Shown here piece by piece: positions 45,705 through 62,440 of a stretch of 64,000 nucleotides of DNA (position 1 is its first letter; each line of letters begins with the position of its first letter). The stretch is taken from assembly GCA_016288495.1 (NCBI GenBank), contig JAEEZH010000155.1, positions 4,804 through 68,803 of the forward strand, read 5' to 3'. The position numbers and the translations under genes were made by a program. The DNA comes from Lachnospiraceae bacterium. GTDB lineage: Bacteria > Bacillota > Clostridia > Lachnospirales > Lachnospiraceae. Below the pieces are notes generated by a model. It was not told where the DNA came from. It worked only from the letters and a program-made list of their open reading frames with translations, and did no database searches.

Positions 45705-45740
45705 CTTGAACGACCCGTCGGGATTGGTGTATCATTTATC
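45705..45740 (+). repeat. 36-nt array repeat, copy Z (most degenerate, 26/36 match)
   Basis: CTTGAACGACCCGTCGGGATTGGTGTATCATTTATC was compared with the consensus CTTGAACGACCCGCTAAAAATGGTGTATTGTTCAAC. The first 13 nt are identical, and it shares the ATCATT variant with copy A. Confidence 0.5.
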
Positions 45741-45809
45741 GGGATAGTCTTGCTTATGTCCATGGAAAAGGAAGGCAGCATGTAATTTAGCAATATAAGG
45801 AGGACATGT

Positions 45810-46133
45810 ATGGATAATATTCTTTTAGCCGCCACCGGGACGGTATCGGGAGGTCACCTTTGGTCTATAAGGATAATCGGTATCGCGGTGGTAGCGGCAT
45901 TCTATTATTTCGTTACTGTCAGACCCCGGGTCAGGGAGAAAGAAAAGAAAAAGGAAATGCTTACTAAAATGGAGGTCGGTGATGTGGTGGAGACCACAGG
46001 TGGTTTTTATGGGGTACTCATCGATGTTACGGATGAGGATGTCATAGTCGAGTTTGGTTCCAACAAGAACTGCCGTATCCCCATGAGAAAGACCGCTATT
46101 GCCGATGTATATAAGGCAGAAAATGATGTCTGA
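45810..46133 (+). CDS. yajC: Preprotein translocase subunit YajC
   Basis: It has a single TM followed by VGDVVETTGGFYGVLIDV...VEFG, the typical YajC core. Confidence 0.85.
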   Translation: MDNILLAATGTVSGGHLWSIRIIGIAVVAAFYYFVTVRPRVREKEKKKEMLTKMEVGDVVETTGGFYGVLIDVTDEDVIVEFGSNKNCRIPMRKTAIADVYKAENDV

Positions 46134-47261
46134 TCATAATTTTTTGTCGAAATACAATTGTTCATCAGCGCGTTTCAGACAGGTTTTGATCGTTTCATCA
46201 CTGTTGAGGAAATCATAGCCGACACTTGCTTCCAGCTTATATTTTAGATCAGCTGACTTCTCCTTTAGTATTGTTCTGAAACTTGAGATCAGTCCTGTCA
46301 CTGCCTCATTATCCACGGACCTTATGATCATAATGAACTCATCCCCGCCATAACGTCCCAGAAATATCGGAAATGTTGCCGCATCGGCAGTCTTTCTCAG
46401 AGAATCCGCTATCAGCGTAAGCGCACGATCCCCCTCGGCATGTCCGTAGTTGTCGTTGATCATTTTAAAGCTGTCTATGTCGATCATACATACACAGCAC
46501 GACTCGTCTTCGCTGTAACTGATGTTATCCATGTACCGGTCAATCTGCCTCCGATTGTTCAGTTTTGTCAGGGAGTCAACCGATATAAGCATCTGTAGGG
46601 ATTTGATGTAGAAATACAGCATCATCAACGTAACTCCGAAACAGAAAAGCGGTGCATTGAGCAAAAAGGTCTGCAGCAGGCCAAAAGATACTATGGCAAG
46701 CGGATAGAGAGCGATAAGCCGGTACAGTCTTTTTTCTTCTATCACAGTGGTTTTTTTTGCGTTTTTCAGGGAAATAACGGAGGAAGATAACACATATAAC
46801 GACGGAACAGTCACCATAAACGGATAGTAGAGATCACCGAGATTGCCATCTTTGTCTATCCAGAGTAAAGGGTTGATGACATAAGCTGCTATTATCACAA
46901 GGACAGATACCATGGTGGGTATCAGGACTGTTTTGGCAAATTTCCGTTTCTTATTAAGGAGCATCCCTTCCGAGGCAGCCATGTACATGAACCAGCTATA
47001 CCCTATAAGATGCAGGAATACATAGTTTGTAAAGTTAAAAAAGACAACAAAAAAACGAATATGGGGAAGTACATCGCTTAACACCGCAGCCCAGCCTATA
47101 TCCGAAAGAAAGTAAATGATATGTACGATGCCTGTCCTGATAAACCAGTTTTCCTGCTCGGTTTTGGTCCGGTAGCCTGTATTCTGAAAGATCAGCATGA
47201 TGAAAATGGCTATGCATACCAGGTTGGCTTCTGTATAGAATCCAAAGTATTCCGGTTTCAT
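46134..47261 (-). CDS. Membrane-anchored diguanylate cyclase (multi-TM plus GGDEF)
   Basis: It has hydrophobic N-terminal helices, then SLTKLNNRRQI...RYGGDEFIMI. Confidence 0.9.
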   Translation of the reverse strand: MKPEYFGFYTEANLVCIAIFIMLIFQNTGYRTKTEQENWFIRTGIVHIIYFLSDIGWAAVLSDVLPHIRFFVVFFNFTNYVFLHLIGYSWFMYMAASEGMLLNKKRKFAKTVLIPTMVSVLVIIAAYVINPLLWIDKDGNLGDLYYPFMVTVPSLYVLSSSVISLKNAKKTTVIEEKRLYRLIALYPLAIVSFGLLQTFLLNAPLFCFGVTLMMLYFYIKSLQMLISVDSLTKLNNRRQIDRYMDNISYSEDESCCVCMIDIDSFKMINDNYGHAEGDRALTLIADSLRKTADAATFPIFLGRYGGDEFIMIIRSVDNEAVTGLISSFRTILKEKSADLKYKLEASVGYDFLNSDETIKTCLKRADEQLYFDKKL

Positions 47262-47405
47262 TTATATTTTTTCCTACCTGACAACTTTTATTTATAATAT
47301 ACGGTTGAATTTTATAGTTTTATCGAATGTCCGTCCATTCTATTATAACACGTGAATTACGTATGGTTAAGGGTCTGGGTGATTTTTTCTTGGGAAATCA
47401 GCAAT

Positions 47406-47690
47406 CTAAACACTACGCTGTCTGGCCACTTCCACAGTACTCATCACACTTTCTTCTTTTTTAACGTAATCCGCAAGGTAAGGAATACAAAACATCACCT
47501 TGCCTCGTTCCGGGCTCGCAATGATCCCCTGGTCTATGAGATATGCCCTGGGTCTGCTCAGTTTATTCTGAGTCATACCCATACTGCGTGCAATATCAGC
47601 CGTTGAGGCAAGACGTTCTGAGTCCAGGCATTCGGACATCTTCGTTAAATATGTCCGCTCACTATTCGGAAGAGATAAAATGGAGAACTG
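47406..47690 (-). pseudogene. 5'-truncated remnant of an AAA-ATPase-type gene (C-terminal winged-helix portion only)
   Basis: The open frame has no plausible N-terminus. It reads ...STADIARSMGMTQNKLSRPRAYLIDQGIIASPERGKV..., an HTH-like tail. The frame stays open to within about 10 nt of repeat copy A. The family call is from memory. Confidence 0.5.
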
Positions 47691-47700
47691 TTAAGATTCT

Positions 47701-47736
47701 CTTGAATGATCCTCTAAAAATGGTGTATCATTCAAC
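47701..47736 (+). repeat. 36-nt array repeat, copy A (5 substitutions, 4 of them stem-preserving), followed by a 10-nt partial re-duplication
   Basis: The copy is CTTGAATGATCCTCTAAAAATGGTGTATCATTCAAC, then TTGAATGATC at 47737-47746. Confidence 0.85.
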
Positions 47737-47809
47737 TTGAATGATCTTATAATGGTAAACCGAAGATCTTATATAGGTAATGAAGACTGATATGGCTAAG
47801 GAGAATAAC

Positions 47810-50437
47810 ATGAAGGTAAGACATTCGTTCAAGAAACTTGTTTCTGTTTTTATATCTTTGACGTTTATGGCGGCTTTGATCCCGCAATCTACCCTGGCAG
47901 ACGGCCCGGATCCGCAGCAAAGCCTTACCGGAATATCTGTCTCTGATACGAAGGATAGCGTAAACAGCGTATATGAACTGGCGGATTCACTTTATCAACG
48001 AAATTCGAACTTTGGCAGAAGAGCCGGCGGATTCATCTGGGATACCGAGGGAAAAAAGAGGAGCTGGACCTATTATAACGGTATCATGATGGATGCTTTT
48101 CTTACGATCGACAAGGAGGCCTATCTTCCCTGTGTAAACGATTATTATAATGAAAATATAACCAGCTCGGGGAAAGTTGACAGCACCGATGCAAGCGAAA
48201 ACTATTACAGGGAGAAGGAACTGGACTCTATCCCGCCTGCACGTGCTCTTTTTGATCTGATCCGGGAGAAGGATTATAATAAGTGTGCCGATAAATATAA
48301 AAAGACAATTAATTATATTTACAGTATTATGCAGTCATATGAGGTTGCAGAGGGGACCAACGGTAATTTTAAACACAAGATAGACAACAAAAACTGGGAG
48401 ACCTATCTGATCGCCCTTGATGGTCTCTATATGGCCCAGCCCTTTTTTATGGAAGTTGCAAATGCTCTTGATGATGGCATATTAATTGTCCAGGATTTTC
48501 AGACTTACACATGTGAAGTACCGGAATCCGATGACATCTACAGTGCTGTGACGGAACGTATGTTATGGATTGGCGAGAATCTTTATATACCCCAAAAGCA
48601 TCTGTATTGTCATGGCTGGGGGCCTGATGGCCTGAACGGACAATACTGGTTAAGGGCTGTCGGCTGGTACGCGGCTGCTCTTGCCGATGTTATCAGTATG
48701 CTTCCTAAAGATGGGTATGAGGAAGAAAAGGATGCCCTTATATTAACAGAAAAAAAGCTTTTTGATGGTATGCTGGAATACCGTGACGAGGCGACGGGCA
48801 TGTGGTATAACGTGATCGACCACGGGCCGGAGCTCGCAGGAAGCGGTTGCAACAATGAGCTTGAAACCTCCGGCACTGCTCTCATGGCTTATGCTATGAT
48901 GAAAACCTATGCGGAAGGATATCTGGACGATACTTACGGGGAAGCCGGCCTCATGGCGTTTAATGGTATAGTTAAGAATTATCTGGATTCCGAAGGACTT
49001 CACAATGTCTATATTTCTTCGGGAGTTGAGACTACTCCGGAAGGGTACCTTGGCAAAAGTTATAAGGTGAACGAGGCAAAGGGCGTAGGGCCGCTGATGA
49101 TGGCCGCGTCCTATGCAAATGCCGCTGCAGAGATTCACGCCGCACCGTCAGCTATCCTGACCGGTGGGGAGGATATGACCTTTGAAATCAACAAAACTCC
49201 GGATTTTTCCGGGGTTTCAGCCAATATCATTTATAATAACGGCACGTCCGTTACGGTGACGAGTGAAAAGCTGACATTCGGAGAATGTGACCCGACAGTG
49301 ACAGGACTTCAGGAAGTGGAGGTATATTACAAGGATATTAATTGTGGAAAGATAAGAGTAACATTTAAAGAACCGGATTCGGAAGATAAGCCGGGCAGTT
49401 CATCCTCGTCGTCAAGGACCAGCAGTTCGTCCTCGTCGTCAAGGACCAGCAGTTCGTCCTCATCGACAAGGACCAGCAGTTCGTCCTCGTCGACAAGAGA
49501 CAGCAGTTCGTCCTCGTCGACAAGAGACAGCAGTTCGTCTTCGTCGTCAAGGACCAGCAGTTCGTCCTCGTCGACAAGAGACAGCAGTTCGTCCTCATCG
49601 ACAAGGACCAGCAGTTCGTCCTCGTCGACAAGAGACAGCAGTTCGTCCTCGTCGGCAAAGGATGGCAGCTCGTCATCTACAGAAAAGGATAAGGACAGCA
49701 GCTCATCAATTGTTGCAGATAGGAAGGACAGCAGCAGCTCAAGTGTGGTTCCTTCCGGCACGTCGGGAGACGGTGACGAGAAAGACAGTACATCGGGCAG
49801 TGTGAAGGTGGTAAGCGAACCCACGCAGCCTGTGAGCGTTTCCATCGGCGGAACGCCTGTGCAGGTCAGAGTGGAACAGGAATATACCGCTGATACCGTA
49901 TATTCGGGCGAGGCCCTGACTCCCGAGTCTGCGGGGCTCAAGACTGATGTTTCCGGCCTTGAAGGCCTCGCAAAGACCGCTATTGAGAATTCGGCAGGAA
50001 ACGTGGCTTCAGCCGGGGATCTAAGCGGACTATTCACTGTGTCCTACAAGGCAAAGGGTAAGGGCGGAGCAGGCGAGACAGCCTTTACATCAAAGATCAA
50101 ATTCGATAAAAAACAGGCAAAGCAGCTGGGAATGAGCAAGGATGACATTAAGGCCCTGGCAAACGCAGTGAAGGCTCTGAATAAATTTCTGAAGCAGAAT
50201 CCCGCGAAGATACAGGTGGCGAAGGCTGACCTTGCCAAATGTTTTGAATCCATAGATGCGTCCTTCGACGCGAAGGGGAAGCTGAAGATAAACTCTGTTA
50301 CAGTGAAGCTTAATGAAAAAACAGTAACTCTTAAGAAGAAGGACTACAAGGTGACGGTATCAGACTCTGAAAAACGCACTGTGACCTTGGAGGGACGGAA
50401 AAACTATGAGGGTACCATCACTGTCACGTTGAAGTGA
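47810..50437 (+). CDS. Secreted GH105/GH88-like unsaturated glycuronyl/rhamnogalacturonyl hydrolase, fused to an Ig-like domain, a Ser-rich linker and a Lys-rich C-terminal module
   Basis: It has a signal peptide (FMAALIPQSTLA) and GH105/GH88-type motifs (WTYYNGIMMDAF, LDGLYMAQPFF, HGWGPD..YWLRAVGWY, ETSGTA). A (SSSSSS[RT][RT][DT]S)n linker follows. The C-terminal region resembles that of ORF 32-5521. The start was set at ATG 47810 after an AAGGAG RBS. Confidence 0.7.
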   Translation: MKVRHSFKKLVSVFISLTFMAALIPQSTLADGPDPQQSLTGISVSDTKDSVNSVYELADSLYQRNSNFGRRAGGFIWDTEGKKRSWTYYNGIMMDAFLTIDKEAYLPCVNDYYNENITSSGKVDSTDASENYYREKELDSIPPARALFDLIREKDYNKCADKYKKTINYIYSIMQSYEVAEGTNGNFKHKIDNKNWETYLIALDGLYMAQPFFMEVANALDDGILIVQDFQTYTCEVPESDDIYSAVTERMLWIGENLYIPQKHLYCHGWGPDGLNGQYWLRAVGWYAAALADVISMLPKDGYEEEKDALILTEKKLFDGMLEYRDEATGMWYNVIDHGPELAGSGCNNELETSGTALMAYAMMKTYAEGYLDDTYGEAGLMAFNGIVKNYLDSEGLHNVYISSGVETTPEGYLGKSYKVNEAKGVGPLMMAASYANAAAEIHAAPSAILTGGEDMTFEINKTPDFSGVSANIIYNNGTSVTVTSEKLTFGECDPTVTGLQEVEVYYKDINCGKIRVTFKEPDSEDKPGSSSSSSRTSSSSSSSRTSSSSSSTRTSSSSSSTRDSSSSSSTRDSSSSSSSRTSSSSSSTRDSSSSSSTRTSSSSSSTRDSSSSSSAKDGSSSSTEKDKDSSSSIVADRKDSSSSSVVPSGTSGDGDEKDSTSGSVKVVSEPTQPVSVSIGGTPVQVRVEQEYTADTVYSGEALTPESAGLKTDVSGLEGLAKTAIENSAGNVASAGDLSGLFTVSYKAKGKGGAGETAFTSKIKFDKKQAKQLGMSKDDIKALANAVKALNKFLKQNPAKIQVAKADLAKCFESIDASFDAKGKLKINSVTVKLNEKTVTLKKKDYKVTVSDSEKRTVTLEGRKNYEGTITVTLK
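49396..49660 (+). repeat. About ten tandem 27-bp coding repeats (SSSSSS-T/R-R/T-D/T-S)
   Basis: Reiteration of AGTTCGTCCTCGTCGACAAG(G/A)(A/G)ACAGC was read directly from the DNA. Confidence 0.9.
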
Positions 50438-50498
50438 AAAAGATCATTATTTATAAGCTGCTCAACTCAGAGTTGAGATATTTGAGGAGTAGATAACA

Positions 50499-51044
50499 AT
50501 GGAGCTGTTAGATGGAAGACCGGAGAATGTGGAGGGGCGCCTGCCTCGTGAGACGCGTACCTACGACCTTCTGGATTCTCTCGGTATTGATTATAAAAGA
50601 ACAGATCACGAACGGACAGATACCATGGAGGCCTGTAATGCTGTAGATGAGATCCTGGGTGTTGTGATATGCAAGAATCTTTTTCTTTGCAATCGTCAGA
50701 AAACGGCATTTTATCTTTTGATGATGCCGGGAGATAAGAAGTTTAAAACAAAGGAACTGTCTGCGCAGATAAATTCTGCAAGGCTTTCTTTTGCCCAGCC
50801 TGAGGATATGCTGAAGTATCTGGATATCGAGCCGGGAGCCGTGAGCATCATGGGGCTGATGAATGATGAGGATCGTGCAGTTCAGCTGCTGATCGATGAG
50901 GATGTATTGAAGGATGAGTATCTCGGATGTCATCCCTGTGTGAATACATCCAGTCTTAAGATACGCGTGGATGATGTGATAAAGAAGTTTCTGCCGGCCG
51001 TGGGACATGATTATAGGACTGTGCATTTGGTCGGAGATGATTAG
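50499..51044 (+). CDS. Prolyl-tRNA synthetase-associated (YbaK/ProX-type) aminoacyl-tRNA editing domain protein
   Basis: The pattern KNLFLCNRQKTAFYLLMMPGDKKFKTKELSAQINSARLSFA...PGAVSIMGL...HPCVNTSS is typical of this family. Confidence 0.85.
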   Translation: MELLDGRPENVEGRLPRETRTYDLLDSLGIDYKRTDHERTDTMEACNAVDEILGVVICKNLFLCNRQKTAFYLLMMPGDKKFKTKELSAQINSARLSFAQPEDMLKYLDIEPGAVSIMGLMNDEDRAVQLLIDEDVLKDEYLGCHPCVNTSSLKIRVDDVIKKFLPAVGHDYRTVHLVGDD

Positions 51045-51061
51045 GTGTGAAAAATTTCCGA

Positions 51062-51481
51062 TCAATGTTCGTGTACGCTCCGCCTCCTGATACTAAAAAA
51101 TCCGATGAGGTCAAAGACACCGGCCAGAGAATTTAGTATGTGGGCGAGCGGGAAGATCCCTCTTTTGATCATGGGGGTATTGTCCAGGCTGGCGGCAAAG
51201 CCGAGAAAGACCAGACCGTCAAGGCAGATCAGGGTCATGGAAATGGTTATGACCGTCAGAGCCAGAATTAAGGTGAGCTGACTTCTGGTAAATGAAGTCA
51301 GGACAGTGGCGATGTTGGTCAGGTACATGGCAAAAAACAATATGATCAGCCCGCCCCACCAGTCGCTTATTGAATTGAAATACACAATGGTATAATAGAT
51401 TTTGTATCCGAATGCCCCTATCGCGATAAAAAGTCCGATCAGCTTCCATATGCTGAATATTCCGTGTCCGGCGTTGTCCAT
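51062..51481 (-). CDS. Small four-helix membrane protein
   Basis: This 139-aa protein has four hydrophobic segments. I recognise no family. Confidence 0.45.
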   Translation of the reverse strand: MDNAGHGIFSIWKLIGLFIAIGAFGYKIYYTIVYFNSISDWWGGLIILFFAMYLTNIATVLTSFTRSQLTLILALTVITISMTLICLDGLVFLGFAASLDNTPMIKRGIFPLAHILNSLAGVFDLIGFFSIRRRSVHEH

Positions 51482-51731
51482 GTCTTTGTTCTCCTTTGCC
51501 GGTTATATGGTAACACAGCAGGCCGGATTTGTTAATATACCGGTAATGAAATAACCCTTTTTGTTTTCTCCGGCGATCAGCATTTGATTTGTTCATATCC
51601 TTCCGAAAGGTCGCTCTTTCATTGCATTTTTCCATAAAAAAACATATAATTTACATTGATTTTGCACGAGCAATTTGAAATAAGTAATGAGTTTCATGGT
51701 GCTGCTGATGACGGGGTTAAGGAGGTTAGGA

Positions 51732-52052
51732 ATGGCATCGAGTAAAGAATATCTGGATTATGTATTGGATCAGTTATCCGGGGCGGATGAGATAACTTAC
51801 AGGGCGATGATGGGAGAGTATATTATCTATTATCGCCGGAAAGTGATCGGCGGGATCTATGATGACCGGTTTCTTGTGAAGAATGTAAAATCAGCCAGAG
51901 ATATGATGCCGGATGCGGACCTGGAATTACCCTATGAAGGCGCCAAGGAGATGCTTTTGGTAGACGATGTCGAGAATAAGGAGTTCCTTAAAGAATTGAT
52001 GGAAGCGATGTTCGAAGAACTGCCGGCTCCGAAGAAAAAGAAAGAGAAGTAG
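51732..52052 (+). CDS. TfoX N-terminal domain family protein
   Basis: It reads EYLDYVLDQL...YRAMMGEYIIYYRRKVIGGIYDDRFLVK. An AAGGAGG RBS precedes ATG 51732. Confidence 0.7.
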   Translation: MASSKEYLDYVLDQLSGADEITYRAMMGEYIIYYRRKVIGGIYDDRFLVKNVKSARDMMPDADLELPYEGAKEMLLVDDVENKEFLKELMEAMFEELPAPKKKKEK

Positions 52053-52081
52053 GAGAGGAGTTTTGATGGAGCCCGGCGTTT

Positions 52082-52143
52082 TCTTTGGACGTGAAAAAAA
52101 AAAGTGTGATGAGTACTGCGGAAGTGGCCAGACAGCGTAAAGT
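52082..52143 (+). pseudogene. Second remnant (last ~12 codons, MSTAEVARQRKV*) of the same ATPase-type gene as 47406-47690, in the opposite orientation, ending 13 nt before repeat copy B
   Basis: About 60 nt align with the reverse complement of 47403-47465 (GTGTGATGAGTACTG(C/T)GGAAGTGGCCAGACAGCGTA...). Confidence 0.6.
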
Positions 52144-52156
52144 ATAGATCACTGCG

Positions 52157-52192
52157 CTTGAACGACCCGCTAAAAATGGTGTGTTGTTCAAC
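52157..52192 (+). repeat. 36-nt array repeat, copy B (1 substitution, A27>G)
   Basis: CTTGAACGACCCGCTAAAAATGGTGTGTTGTTCAAC. Confidence 0.95.
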
Positions 52193-52293
52193 AAAATGGA
52201 GCGTAAGGGATTAACTCGTGAAGAGGCGTATGAGGATATAATAAAAACCGCATCAAAGACAAATGAAGAATACGATAAAAGGTATGGCGTGAA

Positions 52294-52557
52294 ATGAAAT
52301 ACAAGTATAACATAAAAACCTATAATTCTCCGGATGCCTTTAGGATGGCTTGTATGGAATTTGAGAAGGAGTATCCAACTGCCAAAAAGAATGAAATGCT
52401 CGTTGATGTAGATGGATCAACTATCCAAGTTTACGCAACCGATGAAGGCGAAATGGTGATTTTTGATGATTATGATGTAGGGGCTGTTTTTGCAAATGCT
52501 GACTTTTTGATTCCTGAAACCTCTAAGCTTAATGATTTATTTGTGTTGATAAACTAA
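52294..52557 (+). CDS. Hypothetical small acidic protein (87 aa), immunity-protein-like in size and context
   Basis: This is a complete ORF. Its ATG overlaps the stop of an upstream gene fragment (ATGA), and its stop overlaps the next start (TAATG). Confidence 0.5.
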   Translation: MKYKYNIKTYNSPDAFRMACMEFEKEYPTAKKNEMLVDVDGSTIQVYATDEGEMVIFDDYDVGAVFANADFLIPETSKLNDLFVLIN

Positions 52558-53723: not shown

Positions 53724-55787
53724 ATGAAAAAGAGAGTTTTATCAATATTGTTGACCACTGTTTTTATGTTTTCGGCAGTTGCCTGTGCACAGCAGAATAC
53801 GGCCGGAATACCGACGGATAAAGTGCTAGACACTGAAGAGATAACTCAAAAAAATGACGACGACAAAGACACAAAAGAGGCTGCGAAGGGTTCTGAACAG
53901 ACAGGGGATTCAACATCTGAAACGGATATCGACAAAATTATTGATGATATGACTCTTCGTGATAAGGTGGAACAGATGATGGTTGTATCCTATCGAGTTT
54001 GGAAAGAGGTTCCTGAAAAGGATGAAGAATCAGATGCGGTGTCAGATAATGATTTGGCTGAGGATATTCCGGGTATCAATGTAACTGAATTAAATGATGA
54101 GATCCGTGATGACCTCAAAGGACATAAATACGGCGGTGTTCTTCTTTTTGGTGAAAACTTTAAGGATGCCGCCCAGACTGCAGGCCTTGTCTCAGACATA
54201 CAGGCCACCAATCAGGACGGGGGAGGCCTTTCCTTATTCATCTGCGTGGATCAGGAGGGCGGTAAAGTGGCCCGTGTCAGCTTTGGCACGACAGGCCCCG
54301 GCAATATGGCCCTGGGGGCAACCGGCGATGCAGGCAACGCCAAAGCAATGGCGGAAATATACGGAAAAGAGTTACAGCTTCTGGGAATCAATACGGACTT
54401 TGCTCCCGTGGTTGACGTTAATAATAATCCCAGTAACCCTGTCATAGGTATCCGTTCTTTCTCCGATTCACCTGAAACGGTTTCGGATTATGCCATTTCA
54501 TACATTGAAGGACTGCATGATGCAGGAACTATCGCCACCTTAAAGCATTTTCCGGGACATGGAAACACGGATACCGATTCCCATACCGGATTTCCCCGCA
54601 TTGACTCAAGTTATGATGAATTAAAGGAATTTGAGCTGATCCCCTTTAAGAAGGCCATCGATGCCGGCGCAGACATGGTCATGACTGCGCATATCCAGTA
54701 TCCTCAGATAGAGACTGAGAAATATATTTCTACCTCATCAGGTGAGGAGGTATATATACCCGCAACCATGAGCCATAAGATCCTTACGGACATACTCAAA
54801 GATGATATGGGATTTGAAGGTGTGGTGGTTTCGGATGCCTTGGATATGAAAGCCATCACGGAGAATTTTGCGGATGAGGATGTCCTCAGGATGACCATGA
54901 ACGCAGGCGTGGATTTCATCATACTTCCCGCCATATTTGATACAGCAGGTTTCAGACATGTTAATGAAATGGTGGAAACAGCCGTGAAACTCGCCGAGGA
55001 CGGAGATGTGGATGAAGAAACTATAGATGATTCCGTAAGACGTATCCTTAGATTAAAGGAAAAATACGGCATTCTTGAGCAGTCGGATTTCGCTCTGACG
55101 GACGAACAGATAAATGAGGCTGTATCCGGCGTGGGAAGCAGCGAAAACCGTGAGGTGGCATGGGAGATTACAAAGAAGGCACTTAGTCTTGTCAAAAATG
55201 ATAATGAGGCATTTCCCATAAATTTGGCTGATGACGAAACCACACTGATGCTTTTTGCTGCAAACTGCGAAGCCCAGGTCGGAACGGGAGAGTATGTCAG
55301 ACAAGAACTCATGGAACAGGGAATCATTTCTAATGAATCACATATAGCGATAATGAAAAATGATAAAGAAAATGAAACTGAATGTATGAATGCGGCTCTT
55401 GAGGCTGATCACTGCATACTGGTATATAAGACCTATAATGCAGCCTGCCTTGATCCTGCTACAGACGACGGTTATTCATCAGGCGTATTTGATAAGATCA
55501 TAGCCTCTCTGCATGAGAAAGAAAAGCAGGCAATTGTTGTAACCTGTCAGCTTCCTTATGATGCGGCAAGGTTTGGCGATGCTGATGCGATTCTTCTTTC
55601 CTATAATTTTTCAACGATAGATAAGGCAGTTCCCGAGTCGGGAGCCGGCAGCGCCTTTGCCCCCAATCTGGCCGCAGCCCTTATGGCCTGCTTCGGAGAC
55701 GGTGATGTGAGCGGCAAAGCGCCTGTTAAGATTCCGAAACTGGATGAAAAATATAAGTTTACGGAAGAGGTATTTGAAACCAGATGA
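53724..55787 (+). CDS. Secreted lipoprotein, glycoside hydrolase family 3 (beta-N-acetylhexosaminidase/beta-glucosidase-like)
   Basis: It has the lipobox FSAVAC, the GH3 N-domain motifs VDQEGGKVARV and LKHFPGHGNTDTDSHTG, and a C-terminal alpha/beta domain. An AAGGAG RBS precedes ATG 53724, which lies 28 nt after copy F. Confidence 0.9.
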   Translation: MKKRVLSILLTTVFMFSAVACAQQNTAGIPTDKVLDTEEITQKNDDDKDTKEAAKGSEQTGDSTSETDIDKIIDDMTLRDKVEQMMVVSYRVWKEVPEKDEESDAVSDNDLAEDIPGINVTELNDEIRDDLKGHKYGGVLLFGENFKDAAQTAGLVSDIQATNQDGGGLSLFICVDQEGGKVARVSFGTTGPGNMALGATGDAGNAKAMAEIYGKELQLLGINTDFAPVVDVNNNPSNPVIGIRSFSDSPETVSDYAISYIEGLHDAGTIATLKHFPGHGNTDTDSHTGFPRIDSSYDELKEFELIPFKKAIDAGADMVMTAHIQYPQIETEKYISTSSGEEVYIPATMSHKILTDILKDDMGFEGVVVSDALDMKAITENFADEDVLRMTMNAGVDFIILPAIFDTAGFRHVNEMVETAVKLAEDGDVDEETIDDSVRRILRLKEKYGILEQSDFALTDEQINEAVSGVGSSENREVAWEITKKALSLVKNDNEAFPINLADDETTLMLFAANCEAQVGTGEYVRQELMEQGIISNESHIAIMKNDKENETECMNAALEADHCILVYKTYNAACLDPATDDGYSSGVFDKIIASLHEKEKQAIVVTCQLPYDAARFGDADAILLSYNFSTIDKAVPESGAGSAFAPNLAAALMACFGDGDVSGKAPVKIPKLDEKYKFTEEVFETR

Positions 55788-55842
55788 GTTTTTCATTGTT
55801 TAAAAATTTAAAAATAGATTTCATGTATCCGGAAATAAAGCG

Positions 55843-56812
55843 ATGAAAAAAACTGATTTGTCCGTCATATTGATCTGTATATTATGTGGTTTTATATTCA
55901 CGGGCTGCGGAAAGCTTAAAGCCATCATGGATCCTAAATCCCAAAATGCAGGGGATTCACACAATAATGCAGTGTATGATGTATCATTACAGCATAAAGA
56001 TGAAATCGATAAAACTGAAGATATTCCTTTGACGGATTCTGAAAAAGATGATGATTTAAATAACAATAAAGATGCTGATCCTGATATGTCGGTGGCCGAT
56101 AAGGATGATACCATCTATGGTAACGGCGGACATTTCGTCAAGTATGGCGGAAAAATCTATTTCAGGGCGCCAGGAAAAGATGCCATGAATAAGGCCGCGC
56201 TTTGGGGCGAATATGATCATATAGGTGAGGCTGTAAGCAGCACCGTAACTTCATATGATCTCGAAACACATGAAACACAGGCTCTTTTTGAGGACACATC
56301 TATAGGGCCCATAGTCATATCAGGAGGGCGTTTTATCCTGGCCGGAATGGAGGCAGACGGAGACGGTCATGTGTATTCATTATCTTTAGACGGATCAGAT
56401 AAAAAAGAACTCCCGGGCAGTCGGATATATGCCACACAGCCTTCAGGAAAATATTTTGTCACAGGTGGCTATGAAGATGATAATAATCTTCACTTTTTCA
56501 TCTGTGATGATGAAGGCAGCTCTCATGAAGTAGATAATACATTGACACTTCATGATTTTGCCGGTATTTCGGATGATCACTTTTTTGTATAACCTGTGAA
56601 GGTGATGAAACCTATGGGAGTTTCGCAGGATATGAGCTTGAAACCGGTAATGAGATCCCTTACGGTCATTTCGGGGAAATATCCGAATATTATAATTATC
56701 CCGGCTTACCTGAATGTCTGGATACCGATGAAAACTCAGTATATCTGCAGATGTCCGCATATGAAGGCACCGGTAATTTTTATTCCTCCAGCAAGTGGAA
56801 TAAGGCAGATTT
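55843..56812 (+). pseudogene. Lipoprotein gene, frameshifted in a T6 run (56581-56586) and 3'-truncated by repeat copy G
   Basis: It has the lipobox FTGC. The ORF stops at 56592, but the adjacent frame continues without stops (CITCEGDETYGSFAGYELETG...SSSKWNKADF) right into the repeat. Confidence 0.6.
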
Positions 56813-56848
56813 CTTGAACGACCCGCTAAAAATGGTGTATTGTTCAAC
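56813..56848 (+). repeat. 36-nt array repeat, copy G (consensus)
   Basis: CTTGAACGACCCGCTAAAAATGGTGTATTGTTCAAC. Confidence 0.95.
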
Positions 56849-57326
56849 CAGGCGACTATATATATATATGACCGGCACAATGTACACAGCCAGAGACGCC
56901 GCCCACAAAAGGATGATGGAAACTCTGGATAAGGAAGAAGCGCTTCCTCTCGATATTGACGGAGCCACCATATATTATATGGGCCCTTCCCCTGCAAGAG
57001 AGGGCAGGCCTATAGGTTCTGCGGGACCGACTACAGCCGGACGAATGGATAAATACGCTCCCAGGCTTCTCGATCTGGGTCTTAACGCCATGATCGGAAA
57101 GGGGAGACGTACAAAGCAGGTCAAAGATGCCATCATCAGGAATGGCGCAGTATATATCGCCGCAGTCGGCGGAGCCGGCGCTCTTTTATCAAAATGCATT
57201 AAGAGCTCTAAAGTGATCGCCTATGATGATCTCGGAACCGAAGCCATAAGAAGGCTTGAGGTTGAAGATTTTCCCGTGATAGTTGTATTTGACAGCAAAG
57301 GAAACGATCTGTACGACCCGGATTAA
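56849..57326 (+). pseudogene. Class I (Fe-S) fumarate hydratase/tartrate dehydratase beta subunit, missing roughly its first 15-25 codons (an internal ATG at 56868 could still be called as a start)
   Basis: The sequence ...TGTMYTARDAAHKRM...GPSPAREGRPIGSAGPTTAGRMD...IGKG...AAVGGAGAL is the conserved beta-subunit core. Homology begins immediately at the 3' edge of copy G. Confidence 0.7.
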
Positions 57327-57369
57327 CGATAATTACATATATCTTTGTTCAGTCTTCTTCATTTCATTA

Positions 57370-58047
57370 TTAACACTTCATTTTCTTCAGCGTGCCTTTA
57401 ACAAGCGCAGCTGAAAAAGGCATGCAAAACTGCGCTACCGGTCCGACCAGGAATGCGCAGATTATGGTTCCGACTCCAAATCTGCCTCCGGGAAAAAAAC
57501 CGATGAGTACAAATAACACATCAGTGATGATCCTCACGATGCCAAATGGTTTGCCGCTTTTTTCGCTTATGACAACAGCGACAAGGTCATTGGGTCCCGT
57601 ACCGGCTTCCGAGCGTATGACGATGGACATCCCGAAAGCAAGGATCACACATCCCAGGATAAGAACTGGGATCTTGACTGCAAGATCCGACTCACTGATA
57701 CTGAGAGGCTCCAGCAACAAGGTGAACAGATCGATAATCGGTCCCCCGCAGAACATACAGACTACAGTCCCCGCCTTTACATAGCTTCTGCCTGAAACAA
57801 GAAGTATCAGTATTATCAAAAAACACACGCACATATGCACCGTCCCGTGTGTCGGTGTGATCAGACCTGTTTTAATTATGAGCAGGCGAAGACCCTGTAT
57901 AAGTACGTTAAAGGGATCTGCTCCCAGATCCGCAAGTATGAATAAGGTGACGCCAAGATGTGCGACCACAAGTCCCAGAAATAGCAGACAAAGCCGGACT
58001 GTCTTTTCACGCAGCTTTTCGCTCATTTTATATCTTGTCTCCTCCAT
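57370..58047 (-). CDS. Polytopic membrane protein (YczE/DUF6198-like)
   Basis: This 225-aa protein has six hydrophobic segments and the motif LADLGADPFNVLIQGL. The family assignment is from memory. Confidence 0.5.
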   Translation of the reverse strand: MEETRYKMSEKLREKTVRLCLLFLGLVVAHLGVTLFILADLGADPFNVLIQGLRLLIIKTGLITPTHGTVHMCVCFLIILILLVSGRSYVKAGTVVCMFCGGPIIDLFTLLLEPLSISESDLAVKIPVLILGCVILAFGMSIVIRSEAGTGPNDLVAVVISEKSGKPFGIVRIITDVLFVLIGFFPGGRFGVGTIICAFLVGPVAQFCMPFSAALVKGTLKKMKC

Positions 58048-58152
58048 AGGTTTATATCTAACTTATTCCATCCTGAAGTCATCAGGATTCCGTCATGCAC
58101 GTCGTGCCTGCCACCTCATGACGAATGTTACCGATCCCGCAACTTGCCTGTC

Positions 58153-59700
58153 CTATATTTGAAATTTCAGCTTTTTTGTCTGCAACGCAGGTTCGAACGG
58201 TATCCGGTTCTGCTTTTCTGAATCTGCCTGTGTATACCGGCTGTTTTCTCTTTCCTGGATCTTTGCCTTTTCCATGATGGCTTTCCAGGACGGAGATAAG
58301 ATATAGTAGGCTATCATACACAGCATGCCAAAGCTGAATGAGATCGGGAAGCAAAGCATTATAAAGGTGCCGTCAAAATACCGGGTTATGAGCCATGCGC
58401 TCGGGATCCGGACTGCCCAGAGCATTAGGATATTGATGACCGTGGTATATCTTACCTTTCCCGTGCCGTTCACTATACAGATGATGCCGTTGAAGATGGC
58501 GTAAAACCACTGGGAAAGCAGCATGACCACAACATATCTGCCGGCATACATGAGCACCTCTTCATCCTTTGAAAAGATCCTGAGTATCGGCATCCTCACA
58601 AAGATGAATAAAAGGCCAAAGCCAAGAGTGATCAATCCCGAAAATACGGGGATTATTATATGTCCCTGCTTAAGCCTCATGTAGTTTCTGGCTCCGAAAT
58701 TCTGGCCGGAAAAAGCAGTGGCTGCTGAAGAAAGACCGGCAATTGCTATGTTTGAAAGTCCGGTGATCCTTCCGGCTACGGAATTACCCGCCATGAATAC
58801 CGAGCCCTGCATATTGACCATGGACTGAATAGCCACGTGTCCAAAGGAATACAATGAATTATTAAGTCCTATCGGAAGACCGATCGCCATCATTTCCTTA
58901 AACTCGGGCAAATACAGATGTCCGGGCAGAAAAGTGAATCCTATTCGCGGAAATCTCTTCTTTATATACAGGATGCTGGCAAGCCATGAAAGAAGCATTG
59001 CAAGGGAGGTAGCGACAGCAACTCCGCTTACGTCCATTCCGAAGCCTGCTACCAGTACTACATCAAGGATTATATTGACAACACATGAAACCAGAAGAAA
59101 TAACAGAGATGCAAAGCTGTCACCAAGACCCCTTAAGATCCCGGCATTAACATTATATCCGATATTTCCCAAAGCACCAAGTAAAACTATACGTGTATAT
59201 ATAAGCGCTGCTTCAAAGGTGTCTGCGGGAACATTCATGAACCGCAGCATATGGGGAGTGTAAAACCATCCCAGGACAGCAATGGGTATGCCGCACAGAT
59301 AGACAAAGGATATGGTGGTGTCGCTGATCCTACGTATCTTTTCATTGTCACCGGCTCCTACACACTGTGAAATGAGAATGGAAATCCCGGTCCCGATTCC
59401 AAGGAAAATGCATAAAAGCACTTCCACGGGCTGGGAGCTGGTGCCCACCGCGGCGAGGGAGGTATGTCCGCAGTAGGCGCCGATCACCAGCGTATCTACG
59501 GTAGTATATAAATACTGAAGAATGTTTCCGATGATGATAGGAACGGCAAACAGCAGAACCTTTCCCATTATGGAACCTCTTGTCATATCTATGCTTTTTG
59601 CTCTTTTTCTTACCCTGCTCATGATGATAACCTCATAATCCGGATTGAACAATGCATGTTTCCAATCCCCTGTCTGTTCTATAGCCTTATGATACATCAT
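58153..59700 (-). CDS. MATE-family efflux transporter
   Basis: This is a 12-TM protein with a typical MATE N-terminus (DMTRGSIMGKVLLFAVPIIIGNILQ). The true start is probably internal (for example ATG 59622), and the C-terminal tail is unusually long. Confidence 0.85.
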   Translation of the reverse strand: MMYHKAIEQTGDWKHALFNPDYEVIIMSRVRKRAKSIDMTRGSIMGKVLLFAVPIIIGNILQYLYTTVDTLVIGAYCGHTSLAAVGTSSQPVEVLLCIFLGIGTGISILISQCVGAGDNEKIRRISDTTISFVYLCGIPIAVLGWFYTPHMLRFMNVPADTFEAALIYTRIVLLGALGNIGYNVNAGILRGLGDSFASLLFLLVSCVVNIILDVVLVAGFGMDVSGVAVATSLAMLLSWLASILYIKKRFPRIGFTFLPGHLYLPEFKEMMAIGLPIGLNNSLYSFGHVAIQSMVNMQGSVFMAGNSVAGRITGLSNIAIAGLSSAATAFSGQNFGARNYMRLKQGHIIIPVFSGLITLGFGLLFIFVRMPILRIFSKDEEVLMYAGRYVVVMLLSQWFYAIFNGIICIVNGTGKVRYTTVINILMLWAVRIPSAWLITRYFDGTFIMLCFPISFSFGMLCMIAYYILSPSWKAIMEKAKIQERENSRYTQADSEKQNRIPFEPALQTKKLKFQI

Positions 59701-59846
59701 AAAATAATGTTTATCTTTTGTATTGATTGCCGTATTTGGTAAAAAATTATTATTTCATGCTGTTATTACTTGAAATATGACAGAATTACGGCTTGTTATG
59801 ATCATATCTGCCCTGTATAATAATTACATGAGGATCGGAGGATAAT

Positions 59847-60698
59847 ATGGCGCTTCCCTTACCTGAAGGAAAAAAAATACATATAAACTACAGACTTCTG
59901 GAGCCTGAATTTGAAATGCCTTCACTTGAAGCGGCGCCGGATCATTATACGCTGTGCCTTATTATCAGAGGTGACAGAAGAGTGATCACTCCGACTATGA
60001 CCTATGAACTCCATTCAGGAGACGTAAACGCCATGCCTCCGTTTTTGTATCACAAAACCATGCCGGCATCCGATGAGTATTATGAAAACATCCTGATAAA
60101 ATTCTCTCCGGATATCCTGGACGAATTTAACCGTAGACTCGGAAACAATATTATCGACCGCTTTTTTGAAAGTCCACCGAAATCCTTTGAAGATGAAAAG
60201 GCCAGGGAAAGAGTATTTTCAACTGCATGGAATATGTGGCGGATATATGACGCGGGAGATACAAACGAAACATATCTGAATTTCAGACTTCAAAGCCTTC
60301 TGTACGGACTGATCCTCGAGATCAATTCAGAGAGCTCTCACGTAAAGGGAGTTAACAACCACCAGACCGTCCTTAGCCAGCCCATAATGGATGCCATTTA
60401 TTATATAGAAAAAAACTACATGAAGCAGATCCATATTGAAGACGCCGCTTTTGCCGGAGGATATTCGGTCTCTTATTTTTCAAGACTGTTCCAGTCACAG
60501 CTCGGTCTGTCATTTACAGATTATCTTCAGAGCATCCGGCTCAAGCACGTAAAGTCAGATCTTATCAGCACGGACAGATCCATAATGGATATAGCCATTG
60601 ACAACGGCTTTATATACGCAGGCAACATGAGCAGCTGCTTTCGAAAAAAGACCGGAATGACTCCAACACAGTTCCGCCGCAAGATCAAGGAGAAATAA
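59847..60698 (+). CDS. AraC-family transcriptional regulator
   Basis: It has an N-terminal cupin-like region and a C-terminal double HTH (YSVSYFSRLFQSQLGLSFTDYL...IAIDNGFIYAGNMSSCFRKKTGMTPTQFRR). Confidence 0.85.
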   Translation: MALPLPEGKKIHINYRLLEPEFEMPSLEAAPDHYTLCLIIRGDRRVITPTMTYELHSGDVNAMPPFLYHKTMPASDEYYENILIKFSPDILDEFNRRLGNNIIDRFFESPPKSFEDEKARERVFSTAWNMWRIYDAGDTNETYLNFRLQSLLYGLILEINSESSHVKGVNNHQTVLSQPIMDAIYYIEKNYMKQIHIEDAAFAGGYSVSYFSRLFQSQLGLSFTDYLQSIRLKHVKSDLISTDRSIMDIAIDNGFIYAGNMSSCFRKKTGMTPTQFRRKIKEK

Positions 60699-60800
60699 GA
60701 ATTACTATTCGTATGATCAAACAAAGTTGTTGCTGTTGCGACTGGAATTACCAACAATATGTTGATGGATTGTGGATAACTTCACACTATATATAGTGAA

Positions 60801-61150
60801 TCAATAGATAAAAAATTCCCGGTAAACAGATTCTCTCTGCTTACCGGGTTTTCTTATCCTCTCCAAAAGCTCGATCTCCATATCCTTTACATAAGGAATA
60901 TCCGAATGAGATCCCGCAGGTCTGGTGAGAGCCTGCTTTGCCATAAGTGCACATTTTTCAAAAGTGCCTCCAATCCCCACTCCGATCACCATAGGAGGAC
61001 AGGCATTTGGACCTGCATCCTTAATTGCCTGAAGCACTGCGCTTTTTACACCCTCGATCCCATCTGCAGGCTTTAACATGAACACACGGCTCATGTTTTC
61101 CGAACCAAAGCCCTTGGGAGCAAGGGTTATCTTTACTTCATCTCCGGGAA
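60801..61150 (-). pseudogene. Internal fragment of the class I fumarate hydratase/tartrate dehydratase alpha subunit (about 100 codons)
   Basis: The fragment reads PGDEVKITLAPKGFGSENMSRVFMLKPADGIEGVK...AGPNACPPMVIGVGIGGTFEKCALMAKQALTRP. The N-terminal third is missing and the 5' end abuts copy H. Homology is lost near 60855, where the terminator hairpin begins. Confidence 0.7.
60818..60855 (+). terminator. Rho-independent terminator (bidirectional hairpin)
   Basis: A CCCGGTAA...TTACCGGG stem is followed by TTTTCTT. It also marks the point where fumarate hydratase alpha homology on the minus strand ends. Confidence 0.7.
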
Positions 61151-61186
61151 CTTGAACGACCCGCTAAAAATGGTGTATTGTTCAAC
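61151..61186 (+). repeat. 36-nt array repeat, copy H (consensus)
   Basis: CTTGAACGACCCGCTAAAAATGGTGTATTGTTCAAC. Confidence 0.95.
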
Positions 61187-61412
61187 ACAACATACCCGGT
61201 GGGTGTCTGGCGGCCGACTCTCGTCTTCGCCATAACATTCCCTCCTTTTGTGTATTAAAAAAGCACCTATGTTTGTAAGTGCTTTTTATACATCTCTATA
61301 ATTATCCCGCTCTAAAATGACTTGATATTATTCCAAATATATAATATATAATAACTAAGAGATGAGCCGGTGCACCCACACCCCTTTTTGGTGAGGGCCG
61401 ACACTATAAGGC

Positions 61413-61700
61413 TCATTTCTTATATCTGAATATATCAACTATTTTTCCTTCTTTGATTAAAATAAAATCACAATCAAAAGTTGAAGATCGTCTTAATCTG
61501 TTAAACGAAATCTGTTTTATCTCAGATACCTCCATTGTAGAATTTCCTACATCAAGAACAATTCCACCAGGATTTCCTCGTATTTGGTGTATTGCTTCTT
61601 GAACATTCTTATCAACTGCATTGTATGTGTATTTATCTGGTTCTTGTTCTTCCCATAATAAACCATTCCACTTATAATCTGGATTCTTTTTCCAGGTTGA
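61413..61700 (-). pseudogene. Start-less/frameshifted ORF, possibly the C-terminal nuclease-like domain of a toxin
   Basis: The frame ...WKKNPDYKWNGLLWEEQEPDKYTYNAVDKNVQEAIHQIRGNPGGIVLDVGNSTMEVSEIKQ...IFRYKK* has no usable ATG. An overlapping frame holds MRLLYNTFGGNIEALPEIIQPGK. The D...E-x-K spacing hints at a PD-(D/E)xK fold. This is weak. Confidence 0.3.
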
Positions 61701-61779
61701 ATTATCTCTGGAAGCGCTTCAATATTCCCGCCAAATGTGTTATAAAGAAGTCTCATATTTTCTTCTTCACGATTTTTCA

Positions 61780-61815
61780 CTTGAACGACCCGCTAAAAAT
61801 GGTGTATTGTTCAAC
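61780..61815 (+). repeat. 36-nt array repeat, copy I (consensus)
   Basis: CTTGAACGACCCGCTAAAAATGGTGTATTGTTCAAC. Confidence 0.95.
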
Positions 61816-61832
61816 TGAGGGGGAATTTATTT

Positions 61833-62285
61833 ATGAAAGCAAATCAAGAAAATGTAAGAGTAGCTTCTTCGAAAGAAGTGATGATCACGTTGGCAGCGCT
61901 TCTGCTTTTTTCGACTCTGATCTGTCTTGGTGAGCAGACAGGCGGATTGATCCAGAAAAAACTGGCCGGTCAGACGAAAGACGTTGCCTGTGAGATCATT
62001 GATATCCGTACGGAAAACCATGTCAAATTCCAGGAACAGTTTAGCATATTTCAGGATGCACAGGGAAACACATACGAATTAAAGACTACATTCAAAGATT
62101 CAATCGGGAGAAAAGCAGATCTGAGCGTTGCCGGATCCCGTGGCTATAGAAAGAGCTATGAGATTGTCAAACCGCAGACGGTCGGATGGGCGGTTTATCT
62201 GTTGCCGATCGTGTGTATTGTAAGCATGATCATTTATCCGATCAAAGCTAAAGAAAAGGGATTATGGCAATGGGAAAGACAATAA
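61833..62285 (+). CDS. Hypothetical two-TM membrane protein (150 aa)
   Basis: This is a complete ORF with a GAGGGGGA RBS, starting 18 nt after copy I. It has N- and C-terminal hydrophobic helices. Confidence 0.55.
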   Translation: MKANQENVRVASSKEVMITLAALLLFSTLICLGEQTGGLIQKKLAGQTKDVACEIIDIRTENHVKFQEQFSIFQDAQGNTYELKTTFKDSIGRKADLSVAGSRGYRKSYEIVKPQTVGWAVYLLPIVCIVSMIIYPIKAKEKGLWQWERQ

Positions 62286-62404
62286 AAAATATGAGCATCA
62301 GTCCTACTTGGGCTGAAGCTCATTTATACCATGGGGATTCTGTTATTTCTTTGCCTGCTTATTGATCTGCGTGGTCGATACAATTGCAAAAATGATTTCA
62401 CCAA

Positions 62405-62440
62405 CTTGAACGACCCGCTAAAAATGGTGTATTGTTCAAC
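62405..62440 (+). repeat. 36-nt array repeat, copy J (consensus; last copy in the window)
   Basis: CTTGAACGACCCGCTAAAAATGGTGTATTGTTCAAC. Confidence 0.95.

Follow-up and report, generated by a model that had tools for sequence, protein, structure and literature searches.

A 36-nt repeat, CTTGAACGACCCGCTAAAAATGGTGTATTGTTCAAC, occurs in eleven co-oriented copies between positions 45705 and 62440 of a 64-kb stretch of Lachnospiraceae bacterium DNA (hereafter the window, meaning the whole stretch that was analysed). Variants of this repeat lie directly behind cas1-cas2 gene pairs in related loci, and we consider it probable that the 36-mer is the repeat of an adaptation module derived from type II CRISPR systems (named for their clustered and regularly interspaced short palindromic repeats) that has no nearby cas9, and that the window carries an orphan array of that system. 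Long inserts of foreign DNA between CRISPR-type repeats suggest machinery of CRISPR descent that keeps entire genes and pieces of phage DNA in store.

A search of the window that allowed up to three mismatches returned nine matches to the 36-mer, all on the + strand. Four of these carry one mismatch (starting at 52157, 52686, 53139 and 53541) and five are exact (53661, 56813, 61151, 61780 and 62405), while none of 100 shuffled sequences contained any match, giving a chance expectation of none. A Hamming scan of both strands added two degenerate copies, at 47701 (31/36 identical) and 45705 (26/36), and nothing else in the 64 kb rose above the background of 20-21/36. Both scans therefore agree with a first-pass annotation of this DNA, which had described eleven co-oriented repeats, two of them degenerate, at these positions. 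The copies are as follows.

R1, 45705-45740, + strand: decayed copy, 26/36 identical to the consensus (chance background 20-21/36)
R2, 47701-47736, + strand: decayed copy, 31/36
R3, 52157-52192, + strand: one mismatch, A27G
R4, 52686-52721, + strand: C12T variant
R5, 53139-53174, + strand: C12T variant
R6, 53541-53576, + strand: C12T variant
R7, 53661-53696, + strand: consensus
R8, 56813-56848, + strand: consensus
R9, 61151-61186, + strand: consensus
R10, 61780-61815, + strand: consensus
R11, 62405-62440, + strand: consensus, final copy in the window

The same repeat family is found beside genes for CRISPR integrases in related genomes and metagenomes. Among 185,579 species-representative genomes the only match to the repeat core lies in a Faecalimonas metagenome-assembled genome (MAG; locus L001), where it adjoins cas2 in the order clpC-radA-cas1-cas2, 76 bp, repeat (35/36 identical to the window consensus) and a truncated alpha/beta-hydrolase gene. 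NCBIfam models assign the L001 Cas1 to TIGR03639 (type II Cas1) and its Cas2 to TIGR01573. Homologues of this Cas1 number more than 1,700 at E <= 1e-20, the best 120 being 72-88% identical, and the genomic context of five homologue lineages was inspected beyond L001, making six lineages in all. Each of the six has its own variant of the 36-mer about 70-125 bp 3′ of cas2, with a conserved leader in front of it that ends, in the leader alignment, with the 12-13 bases ACWAARATRTAR, and the repeat variant co-varies with the Cas1 lineage. Gut Clostridia carry the module widely, with a Faecalimonas and a Tyzzerella MAG as the two records that bear a name. Five different upstream gene contexts are distributed over the six lineages, the radA context being common to two.

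P0002 (locus L007), upstream of cas1: radA
P0066, upstream of cas1: one large serine recombinase and a 53-amino-acid (aa) open reading frame (ORF)
P0038, upstream of cas1: three serine recombinases and a 356-aa ORF
P0109, upstream of cas1: EF-G/YacP-like gene
P0079, upstream of cas1: TRAM methyltransferase

No cas9 was found upstream of cas1 in any of the six lineages (over 10 kb for five of them and over 2.5 kb for L001), in 0.1-7.5 kb downstream of cas2, or in the window. Likewise, neither csn2 nor an anti-repeat resembling that of a trans-activating CRISPR RNA (tracrRNA) was found near any copy. When the loci were compared without gaps with the reverse complement of the repeat, nothing reached 22/36, a search that bulged anti-repeats could escape, and no Rfam family matches within the array region. 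No conserved effector was seen to accompany cas1-cas2. The two genes themselves are, to judge from ratios of nonsynonymous to synonymous substitution (dN/dS) of ∼0.06-0.1 for cas1 and ∼0.03-0.11 for cas2, with dS saturated, under strong purifying selection and maintained. The catalytic E/H/E positions of Cas1 align with those of the solved type II-A structures 5xvn and 4zkj, and by eye the protein is ∼35-40% identical to the solved II-A Cas1 of Enterococcus faecalis and Streptococcus pyogenes. Cas2, as read from its sequence, has Ser at the position of the usual catalytic Asp.

The DNA between the repeats differs from ordinary spacers in every array. Taking the window and the related arrays together, there are 34 distinct gaps, the shortest of 84 bp and the longest of 4420 bp (median 712 bp), with no spacer-sized gap among them; in every cas-linked array seen, the “spacers” are 0.3-3.2 kb long. 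Array content also varies between strains. Four differing arrays lie behind an identical Cas1 protein and a 100% identical 130-bp leader, and each was found again in independent assemblies. Their leader-proximal inserts are unrelated, and some deeper inserts are common to them at 95-99.8% identity. In the array of L007, R1 and R2 are identical and derived and the distal R3 differs; in L045 the distal repeat (R2 of a two-repeat array) is degenerate at its 3′ end. A divergent distal repeat, as in these cas-linked arrays, is what the copying of new repeats at the leader would be expected to produce.

Comparisons among these arrays reveal that the same donor DNA can be represented with different ends and in either orientation. 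The third insert of L017 (575 bp) is 100% identical to positions 103-677 of the 771-bp first insert of L013, and the second insert of L017 is an inverted copy of positions 109-762 of the first insert of L018 (99.8%). The L011 and L013 arrays have two blocks, A and B, in common and in the same order, with a repeat 101 bp or 136 bp from the block ends, and the Gln_amidase insert has nested left borders. At five right and five left reconstructed donor borders there is no shared motif of the kind expected from a protospacer-adjacent motif (PAM) and no consistent microhomology with the repeat ends, a sample small enough for a weak motif to escape.

At least some of this DNA comes from phages. In the second insert of L013 (3193 bp) a partial portal gene is accompanied by a 570-aa MuF-type gene, a pair of small genes and Prp. 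Apart from the toxin/immunity portion, this insert aligns collinearly, at 81-90% identity, with an internal stretch of a 35-kb IMG/VR phage contig; no match to the insert was found among GenBank phages. The C-terminal ∼155 residues of its MuF protein are not conserved in 15 viral homologues. A variable C-terminus is the pattern of MuF polymorphic toxins (PMC5576092). Among the other inserts, some encode Gln_amidase and CdiA_C toxin domains with small ORFs behind them, and some hold fragments of topoisomerase, radical-SAM, ResIII and AsnA genes. The L011, L013, L017 and L018 arrays are enriched in truncated toxin C-terminal domains (Gln_amidase, CdiA_C and MuF C-termini) followed by ORFs of 60-115 aa, and such toxin-plus-small-ORF inserts, for example L013 8149-9015 and L018 2449-3435, resemble orphan toxin/immunity modules.

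The window array holds mostly metabolic, transport and regulatory genes. Pfam searches identify complete genes for YajC, GGDEF, GH88/105-family, TfoX_N, GH3, MatE, AraC and YitT proteins between the repeats, together with genes cut exactly at repeat borders (Fumerase_C, Fumerase, a BMP-family gene and the tail of a minor-capsid gene), in line with the earlier description of gene-bearing segments of 84-4420 bp that contain complete genes as well as fragments. The guanine-plus-cytosine (GC) fraction of the segments is 0.31-0.51, compared to 0.48 upstream of the array (1-45704). The ten segments, in order, are listed here.

Segment 1, 45741-47700, 1960 bp, GC 0.43: complete yajC (45810-46133, +) and a GGDEF protein gene (46134-47261, -), both from Pfam
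Segment 2, 47737-52156, 4420 bp: GH88/105-family gene of 885 aa (47780-50437, +), two - strand ORFs and TfoX_N (51687-52052, +), from Pfam
Segment 3, 52193-52685, + strand, 493 bp: last 34 codons of a Phage_min_cap2/MuF-like minor-capsid gene cut by R3; complete 87-aa ORF (52294-52557); first 43 codons of another ORF, cut by R4
Segment 4, 52722-53138, 417 bp, GC 0.31: membrane-protein-like ORF (-) open up to the R4 border; 86-aa ORF (+)
Segment 5, 53175-53540, + strand, 366 bp, GC 0.33: 31-aa ORF, 76-aa ORF and a terminator-like hairpin (our own reading) ending at R6
Segment 6, 53577-53660, + strand, 84 bp: piece from the interior of a BMP-family (PF02608-like) gene, in frame
Segment 7, 53697-56812, + strand, 3116 bp: complete GH3 gene, its own ribosome-binding site lying 28 nt past R7; 249-aa ORF
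Segment 8, 56849-61150, 4302 bp: Fumerase_C (profile positions 49-203 of 205, +) cut N-terminally by R8; YitT (-), MatE (-) and AraC (+); at the end, a Fumerase alpha fragment (profile 143-226, -) cut by R9
Segment 9, 61187-61779, 593 bp, GC 0.35: only - strand ORFs, one starting at the R10 border
Segment 10, 61816-62404, + strand, 589 bp: complete 150-aa membrane ORF with a ribosome-binding site 17 nt after R10

Segment 3 is, on the strength of its protein matches, a phage-derived fragment. A homologue of its 87-aa ORF (44-49% identical) directly follows a 489-aa Phage_min_cap2 protein in five IMG/VR phage contigs, and the C-terminus of that same 489-aa protein matches the 34-aa fragment cut by R3 (55-58%, E 1e-9 to 1e-10). 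No donor was found for segments 3-6 among GenBank phages or for segments 7-8 among plasmids, and the small ORFs of the window have neither matches in PHROGs nor anything in common with the inserts of other arrays. Exact protein matches to window genes occur only on short contigs of one metagenome, GCA_016648415.1, three of which (L004, L005 and L048) reproduce window junctions at 99.9-100% identity. Segment 4 is identical in L005. That contig also has the segment 6 piece and continues it for at least 821 bp, such that L005 and the window diverge at the repeat border 53660/53661; other homologues of the segment 6 gene are at most 57% identical. Segment 8 bears two pieces of one two-subunit fumarase operon at its opposite ends and in opposite orientation (beta, 56849-57326, +; alpha, 60800-61150, -), and the nearest homologues of the beta piece, besides the ORF of the window itself, are no more than 86% identical. 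The 249-aa ORF of segment 7 reads as a putative lipoprotein.

Several smaller features of the array were also observed. A partial degenerate copy of the repeat, 20 nt long (47737-47756; repeat positions 2-24), abuts R2, and only 2 of 2000 shuffles score as high; a second repeat-like stretch (53175-53190; about repeat positions 15-32) abuts R5. These partial copies may be scars of deletions that started at a repeat border. The GH88/105-family gene of segment 2 contains at least ∼10 tandem copies of a 27-bp unit, 80-92% identical (49341-49718), which presumably encode a linker of nine-residue repeats. A 58-bp stretch of segment 1 (47404-47461) recurs inverted at 52094-52149 with 89% identity, seven bases before R3.

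The repeat itself has a terminal inverted repeat of 6-9 bp, and the family is covered by the degenerate form GAAYGMNNNNSYMRAAATGGTGYATYGTTCAA. To call it a hairpin, as the first-pass annotation had done, is too strong: as DNA the window variant folds weakly (minimum free energy -3.7 kcal/mol, z = -1.7), and among eight repeat variants there are wobble changes only and no compensatory covariation. A promoter that can be drawn by eye within the repeat (TTGAAC, 16 nt, TGgTGTATT) is not flagged by a consensus scan and is not conserved in the L007 variant. A coding role was also rejected. The sole open frame is LNDPLKMVYCST in four translated variants, most of the changes that separate the variants are non-synonymous, and fusions in frame occur no more often than chance allows.

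How might such arrays arise? We regard it as an even chance that this clade of Cas1-Cas2, lacking both Cas9 and length control, serves as a device for capturing DNA in general, by which kilobase stretches from phages and other sources are written into its array, among them whole expressible genes such as those for immunity to phage MuF toxins. The 3′-hydroxyl ends of a DNA fragment would attack both borders of a repeat under the action of Cas1-Cas2, preferentially at the leader-proximal repeat, and gap repair would duplicate the 36 bp as in ordinary spacer acquisition. In type II-A systems prespacers are trimmed to 30 bp by a supercomplex of Cas9, Csn2, Cas1 and Cas2, with involvement of the Cas9 HNH domain (PMC8034620). 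Without this trimming, fragments would enter at any length, in either orientation and with no PAM, and given that Cas9 and Csn2 are absent near the loci, phage DNA ends would be inserted untrimmed rather than cut to ∼30 bp. The same end-joining reaction acting on breaks inside the array would yield deletions and inversions adjacent to repeats. Possible examples are the partial copies after R2 and R5, the nested Gln_amidase borders, the difference between the window and L005 at 53660/53661, and the reverse repeats of locus L021 (see below). The most plausible benefit would lie in keeping and expressing captured genes, for example those for immunity that come with phage toxins of the MuF type, and not in interference guided by RNA.

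However, a number of observations weigh against assigning the window array to a Cas1-Cas2 capture module. Cas1-Cas2 and the long inserts are linked by association, and the comparative loci are metagenome assemblies throughout. Neither cas genes nor a leader motif occur in the window itself. Its decayed copies, R1 and R2, occupy the end that in cas-linked arrays is nearest the leader, so that decayed terminal copies, which the first-pass annotation had counted as a CRISPR property, are indeed present but on the side opposite to the CRISPR norm; R1 and R2 also keep an ancestral-like ATC at positions 27-29. The block R4-R6 shares a C12T change that is absent from its neighbours, and blockwise variants of this kind need an origin by reversal or recombination. 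In segment 8 the fumarase alpha fragment is joined to the AraC region with no repeat, near 60800-60850, beside a strong bidirectional terminator-like hairpin (60818-60848). In L021 (11286-16147) three + strand repeats are followed by three - strand repeats in convergent arrangement, with 442 bp between the blocks; no second leader was seen at the far end.

Other points concern the enzymes. The cas1 gene of L001 is frameshifted (2980-3040), although this locus is the closest relative of the window repeat, and in part of the P0079 lineage a truncation or frameshift affects cas2 (L044 1270-1480), indicating that some copies of the module are decaying. The searches for cas9 covered local neighbourhoods, and a cas9 gene may lie elsewhere in these genomes. 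In solved Cas1-Cas2 complexes the protein itself is a ruler of ∼30 bp, so that kilobase integration needs another way of holding the DNA ends. For the window in particular, the array may be composite, or may have grown without a leader by means of an enzyme supplied in trans.

Among other explanations, one that we judge unlikely is that the 36-mer serves as an attachment or crossover site, at which circular or linear DNAs that already bear the repeat, such as phages and integrative elements, enter by way of a site-specific recombinase or RecA and later erode, leaving Cas1-Cas2 as a bystander or relic. Large serine recombinase genes do lie directly upstream of cas1 in two lineages (P0066 and P0038), but no recombinase is present in the radA-, EF-G/YacP- and TRAM-linked loci or in the window. 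The products of serine integrases are hybrid attL and attR sites rather than identical direct repeats, and the identical 36-bp direct repeats found here do not resemble them. Moreover, the repeat core occurs in none of 2.9 million IMG/VR viral contigs, which argues that the donors do not carry the site, and the inserts end within genes, with the same donor DNA present with different ends and in both orientations, for which a fixed donor site cannot be the source. The 84-bp insert is too short for a mobile element. In favour of accretion, partial repeat copies and repeat-adjacent deletions can be read as recombination scars, single repeat copies are found in other contexts (L002 and L003), and one report describes prophage integration into CRISPR repeats (bioRxiv 10.1101/2020.10.09.333658).

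The two single copies, both from related metagenomes, are exact matches to the window repeat. In L002 the copy (12537-12572) is located 3 nt after the stop codon of a 199-aa gene and ∼130 nt before a gene for a 2,900-aa surface protein, thus between two complete genes, with no second repeat in 12.5 kb on the other side. In L003 the copy (47-82) cuts an ORF after its eighth codon.

More doubtful still is the possibility that these are ordinary type II arrays remodelled by homologous recombination, wherein a double crossover through two neighbouring spacers exchanges spacer-repeat-spacer for the stretch of donor DNA between the two protospacers. Recombination between spacers and protospacers is known in staphylococci, and the process would give long inserts bounded exactly by repeats along with arbitrary truncation of genes. 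Yet 0 of the 34 gaps, from arrays of six lineages, is spacer-sized, and every insert would need two neighbouring spacers from the same donor in the right order and orientation. The strong purifying selection on cas1-cas2 in the absence of a nearby cas9 also argues for current activity of the module over a relic.

It is very improbable that the 36-mer is a dispersed intergenic repeat, similar to repetitive extragenic palindromic (REP) sequences, or a recombination hot spot without dedicated machinery, with the window cluster as a local pile-up. Isolated copies such as that of L002 and the lack of machinery in the window would fit this explanation. REP-like elements have many copies in both orientations between genes, whereas here no copy lies outside 45705-62440 in the 64 kb, all have a single orientation, repeats interrupt genes, and the one match in the species-representative collection adjoins cas2. 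In the cas-linked loci the repeat variant tracks the Cas1 lineage and is always behind a conserved leader. Chimeric joins at a short repeat in metagenome assemblies, finally, have next to no probability as an explanation: although all loci come from metagenomes or MAGs and L005 parts from the window precisely at the edge of a repeat, 36 bp is below the read and final k-mer length of such assemblies, identical repeat-insert-repeat structures recur across independent samples and assemblers (L013=L014=L016=L020, L007=L008, L011=L012, L018=L019, L021-L025), and the junctions in L004, L005 and L048 are those of the window.

Of the three ideas put forward in the first-pass annotation, a Cas1-type integrase that inserts long DNA at a fixed 36-bp target, duplicating it, is the one that fits the comparative loci and is favoured, given that the same repeats lie behind cas1-cas2, always with long inserts. 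The search for the 36-mer in related genomes and metagenomes and the look at genes flanking other arrays, both proposed there, led to lineage-specific repeat copies behind cas2 and to a conserved Cas1-like gene, with cas1-cas2 in six lineages. Integron-like capture applies only loosely: a likeness exists, but there is no intI and no attC, and many inserts are random gene fragments. The idea of a REP-like hairpin finds no support, given the confinement of the copies, their one orientation and the tight linkage to cas1-cas2 elsewhere.

The closest known relative of the proposed module is the type II (II-A or II-C) adaptation module. Both have a TIGR03639 Cas1 with its catalytic residues, Cas2, 36-nt repeats with inverted termini, a leader that abuts the first repeat, a repeat that co-varies with Cas1, arrays that are hypervariable between strains, and phage-derived inserts. 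Unlike that module, the one described here has inserts of 84-4420 bp in place of ∼30 bp, with whole genes, either orientation and no PAM-like motif at five reconstructed donor borders; no cas9, csn2 or ungapped tracrRNA-like anti-repeat was found near any copy, and its Cas2 has Ser for Asp. The window array has the short, near-identical direct repeats in one orientation that characterize canonical CRISPR arrays (∼23-55 nt; here nine copies with 0-1 mismatch and two decayed ones) without their regular short spacers (∼21-72 bp). Cas1 and Cas2 beside the array are absent from the window and present in related loci, and a leader by the first repeat is likewise absent from the window and present in six cas-linked lineages. 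Spacers derived from mobile elements have their counterparts in segment 3 and the second insert of L013, the other window segments being without an identified donor.

With integrons the arrays share co-oriented arrangement of captured genes split by a short site, content that varies between strains, and, in several inserts, a complete gene that opens, ribosome-binding site included, shortly behind the site (GH3 after R7, the 150-aa ORF after R10). However, there is no intI tyrosine recombinase in the window or in the radA-linked loci, the associated enzyme being Cas1-Cas2. Integron attC sites are imperfect palindromes of 57-141 bp, conserved in structure and variable in sequence, in contrast to a near-invariant, weakly folding 36-mer, and cassettes are usually single promoterless ORFs, in contrast to truncated genes and multi-gene blocks on either strand. 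Casposons are similar in their Cas1-family integrase, kilobase DNA and target duplication, but here the Cas1 is of the type II CRISPR kind and is paired with Cas2, and the duplicated target is a fixed repeat behind a leader. No PolB was found in any locus, and the inserts share no terminal repeats besides the 36-mer.

Two further systems bear comparison. The rAID-1 elements of Bacteroidales are arrays of orphan immunity genes beside a recombinase (bioRxiv 10.1101/471110). The P0066 and P0038 arrays resemble these and other orphan toxin-immunity arrays in being rich in truncated toxin C-termini followed by small ORFs, and differ in phylum, repeat and enzyme (a tyrosine recombinase there, Cas1-Cas2 here). 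In S. pyogenes, prophages in CRISPR repeats provide another case of long foreign DNA flanked by CRISPR repeats, although there a complete prophage enters by its own integrase and a repeat-mimicking attP, whereas the inserts here are internal fragments with arbitrary ends. No description of Cas1-Cas2 arrays with kilobase inserts was found in the literature, subscription journals being outside our coverage. We see it as a derived CRISPR adaptation module, with a fair chance that in function it amounts to a new sort of gene-capture system.

No enzyme for the array was found in its surroundings. Searches of the window by tblastn with Cas1 and Cas2 of a related locus found neither, and Pfam searches of almost all larger ORFs revealed no Cas, recombinase or transposase domain, which agrees with the earlier statement that the 64 kb hold no known machinery. 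Pfam results outside the array include signalling proteins, transporters and CopA/CsoR. Two giant ORFs were assessed by reading rather than by Pfam: one of 1,641 aa with flagellin-like termini (29478-34403) and one of 1,829 aa that reads by eye as a repeat-rich surface protein (32-5521). No leader motif lies beside any repeat in the window. A leader remnant upstream of R1 was considered and dropped, as the alignment was unconvincing and the region is palindromic and operator-like, upstream of copA. Between copA and R1 (45600-45660) there is a G/C-rich palindrome, CCCCCCTA...TAGGGGGG, that by eye resembles a CsoR operator or a terminator, indicating that the array is flanked on its left by the control region of copA and not by a CRISPR leader. 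Farther upstream are a hybrid kinase/Hpt/response-regulator set (5530-12655) and a dense group of cyclic di-GMP genes (11285-25410), with six GGDEF or GGDEF-EAL proteins in 14 kb (those at 11285, 17930, 19426, 22641 and 24043 among them); a further GGDEF gene is the one in segment 1 (46134-47261).

CRISPR finders discard arrays with long spacers, and loci of this kind are consequently annotated at present as isolated cas1-cas2 genes. If Cas1-Cas2 does build these arrays, the CRISPR integrase would not be intrinsically limited to ∼30 bp in vivo, with consequences for our picture of how the length of prespacers is fixed and of the route proposed to lead from casposons to CRISPR. Designers of DNA-writing tools would also take an interest in a natural enzyme that integrates kilobase DNA at one defined site of 36 bp. 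Were the modules indeed to act as capture devices, they would be a counterpart of the integron in function, derived from CRISPR, or else a record of infection held in captured genes and not in guide RNAs. For gut Clostridia, which belong to a phylum in which integrons are thought to be rare or absent, such modules, located on chromosomes as well as on serine-recombinase elements, would be a means of gene capture not recognised before.

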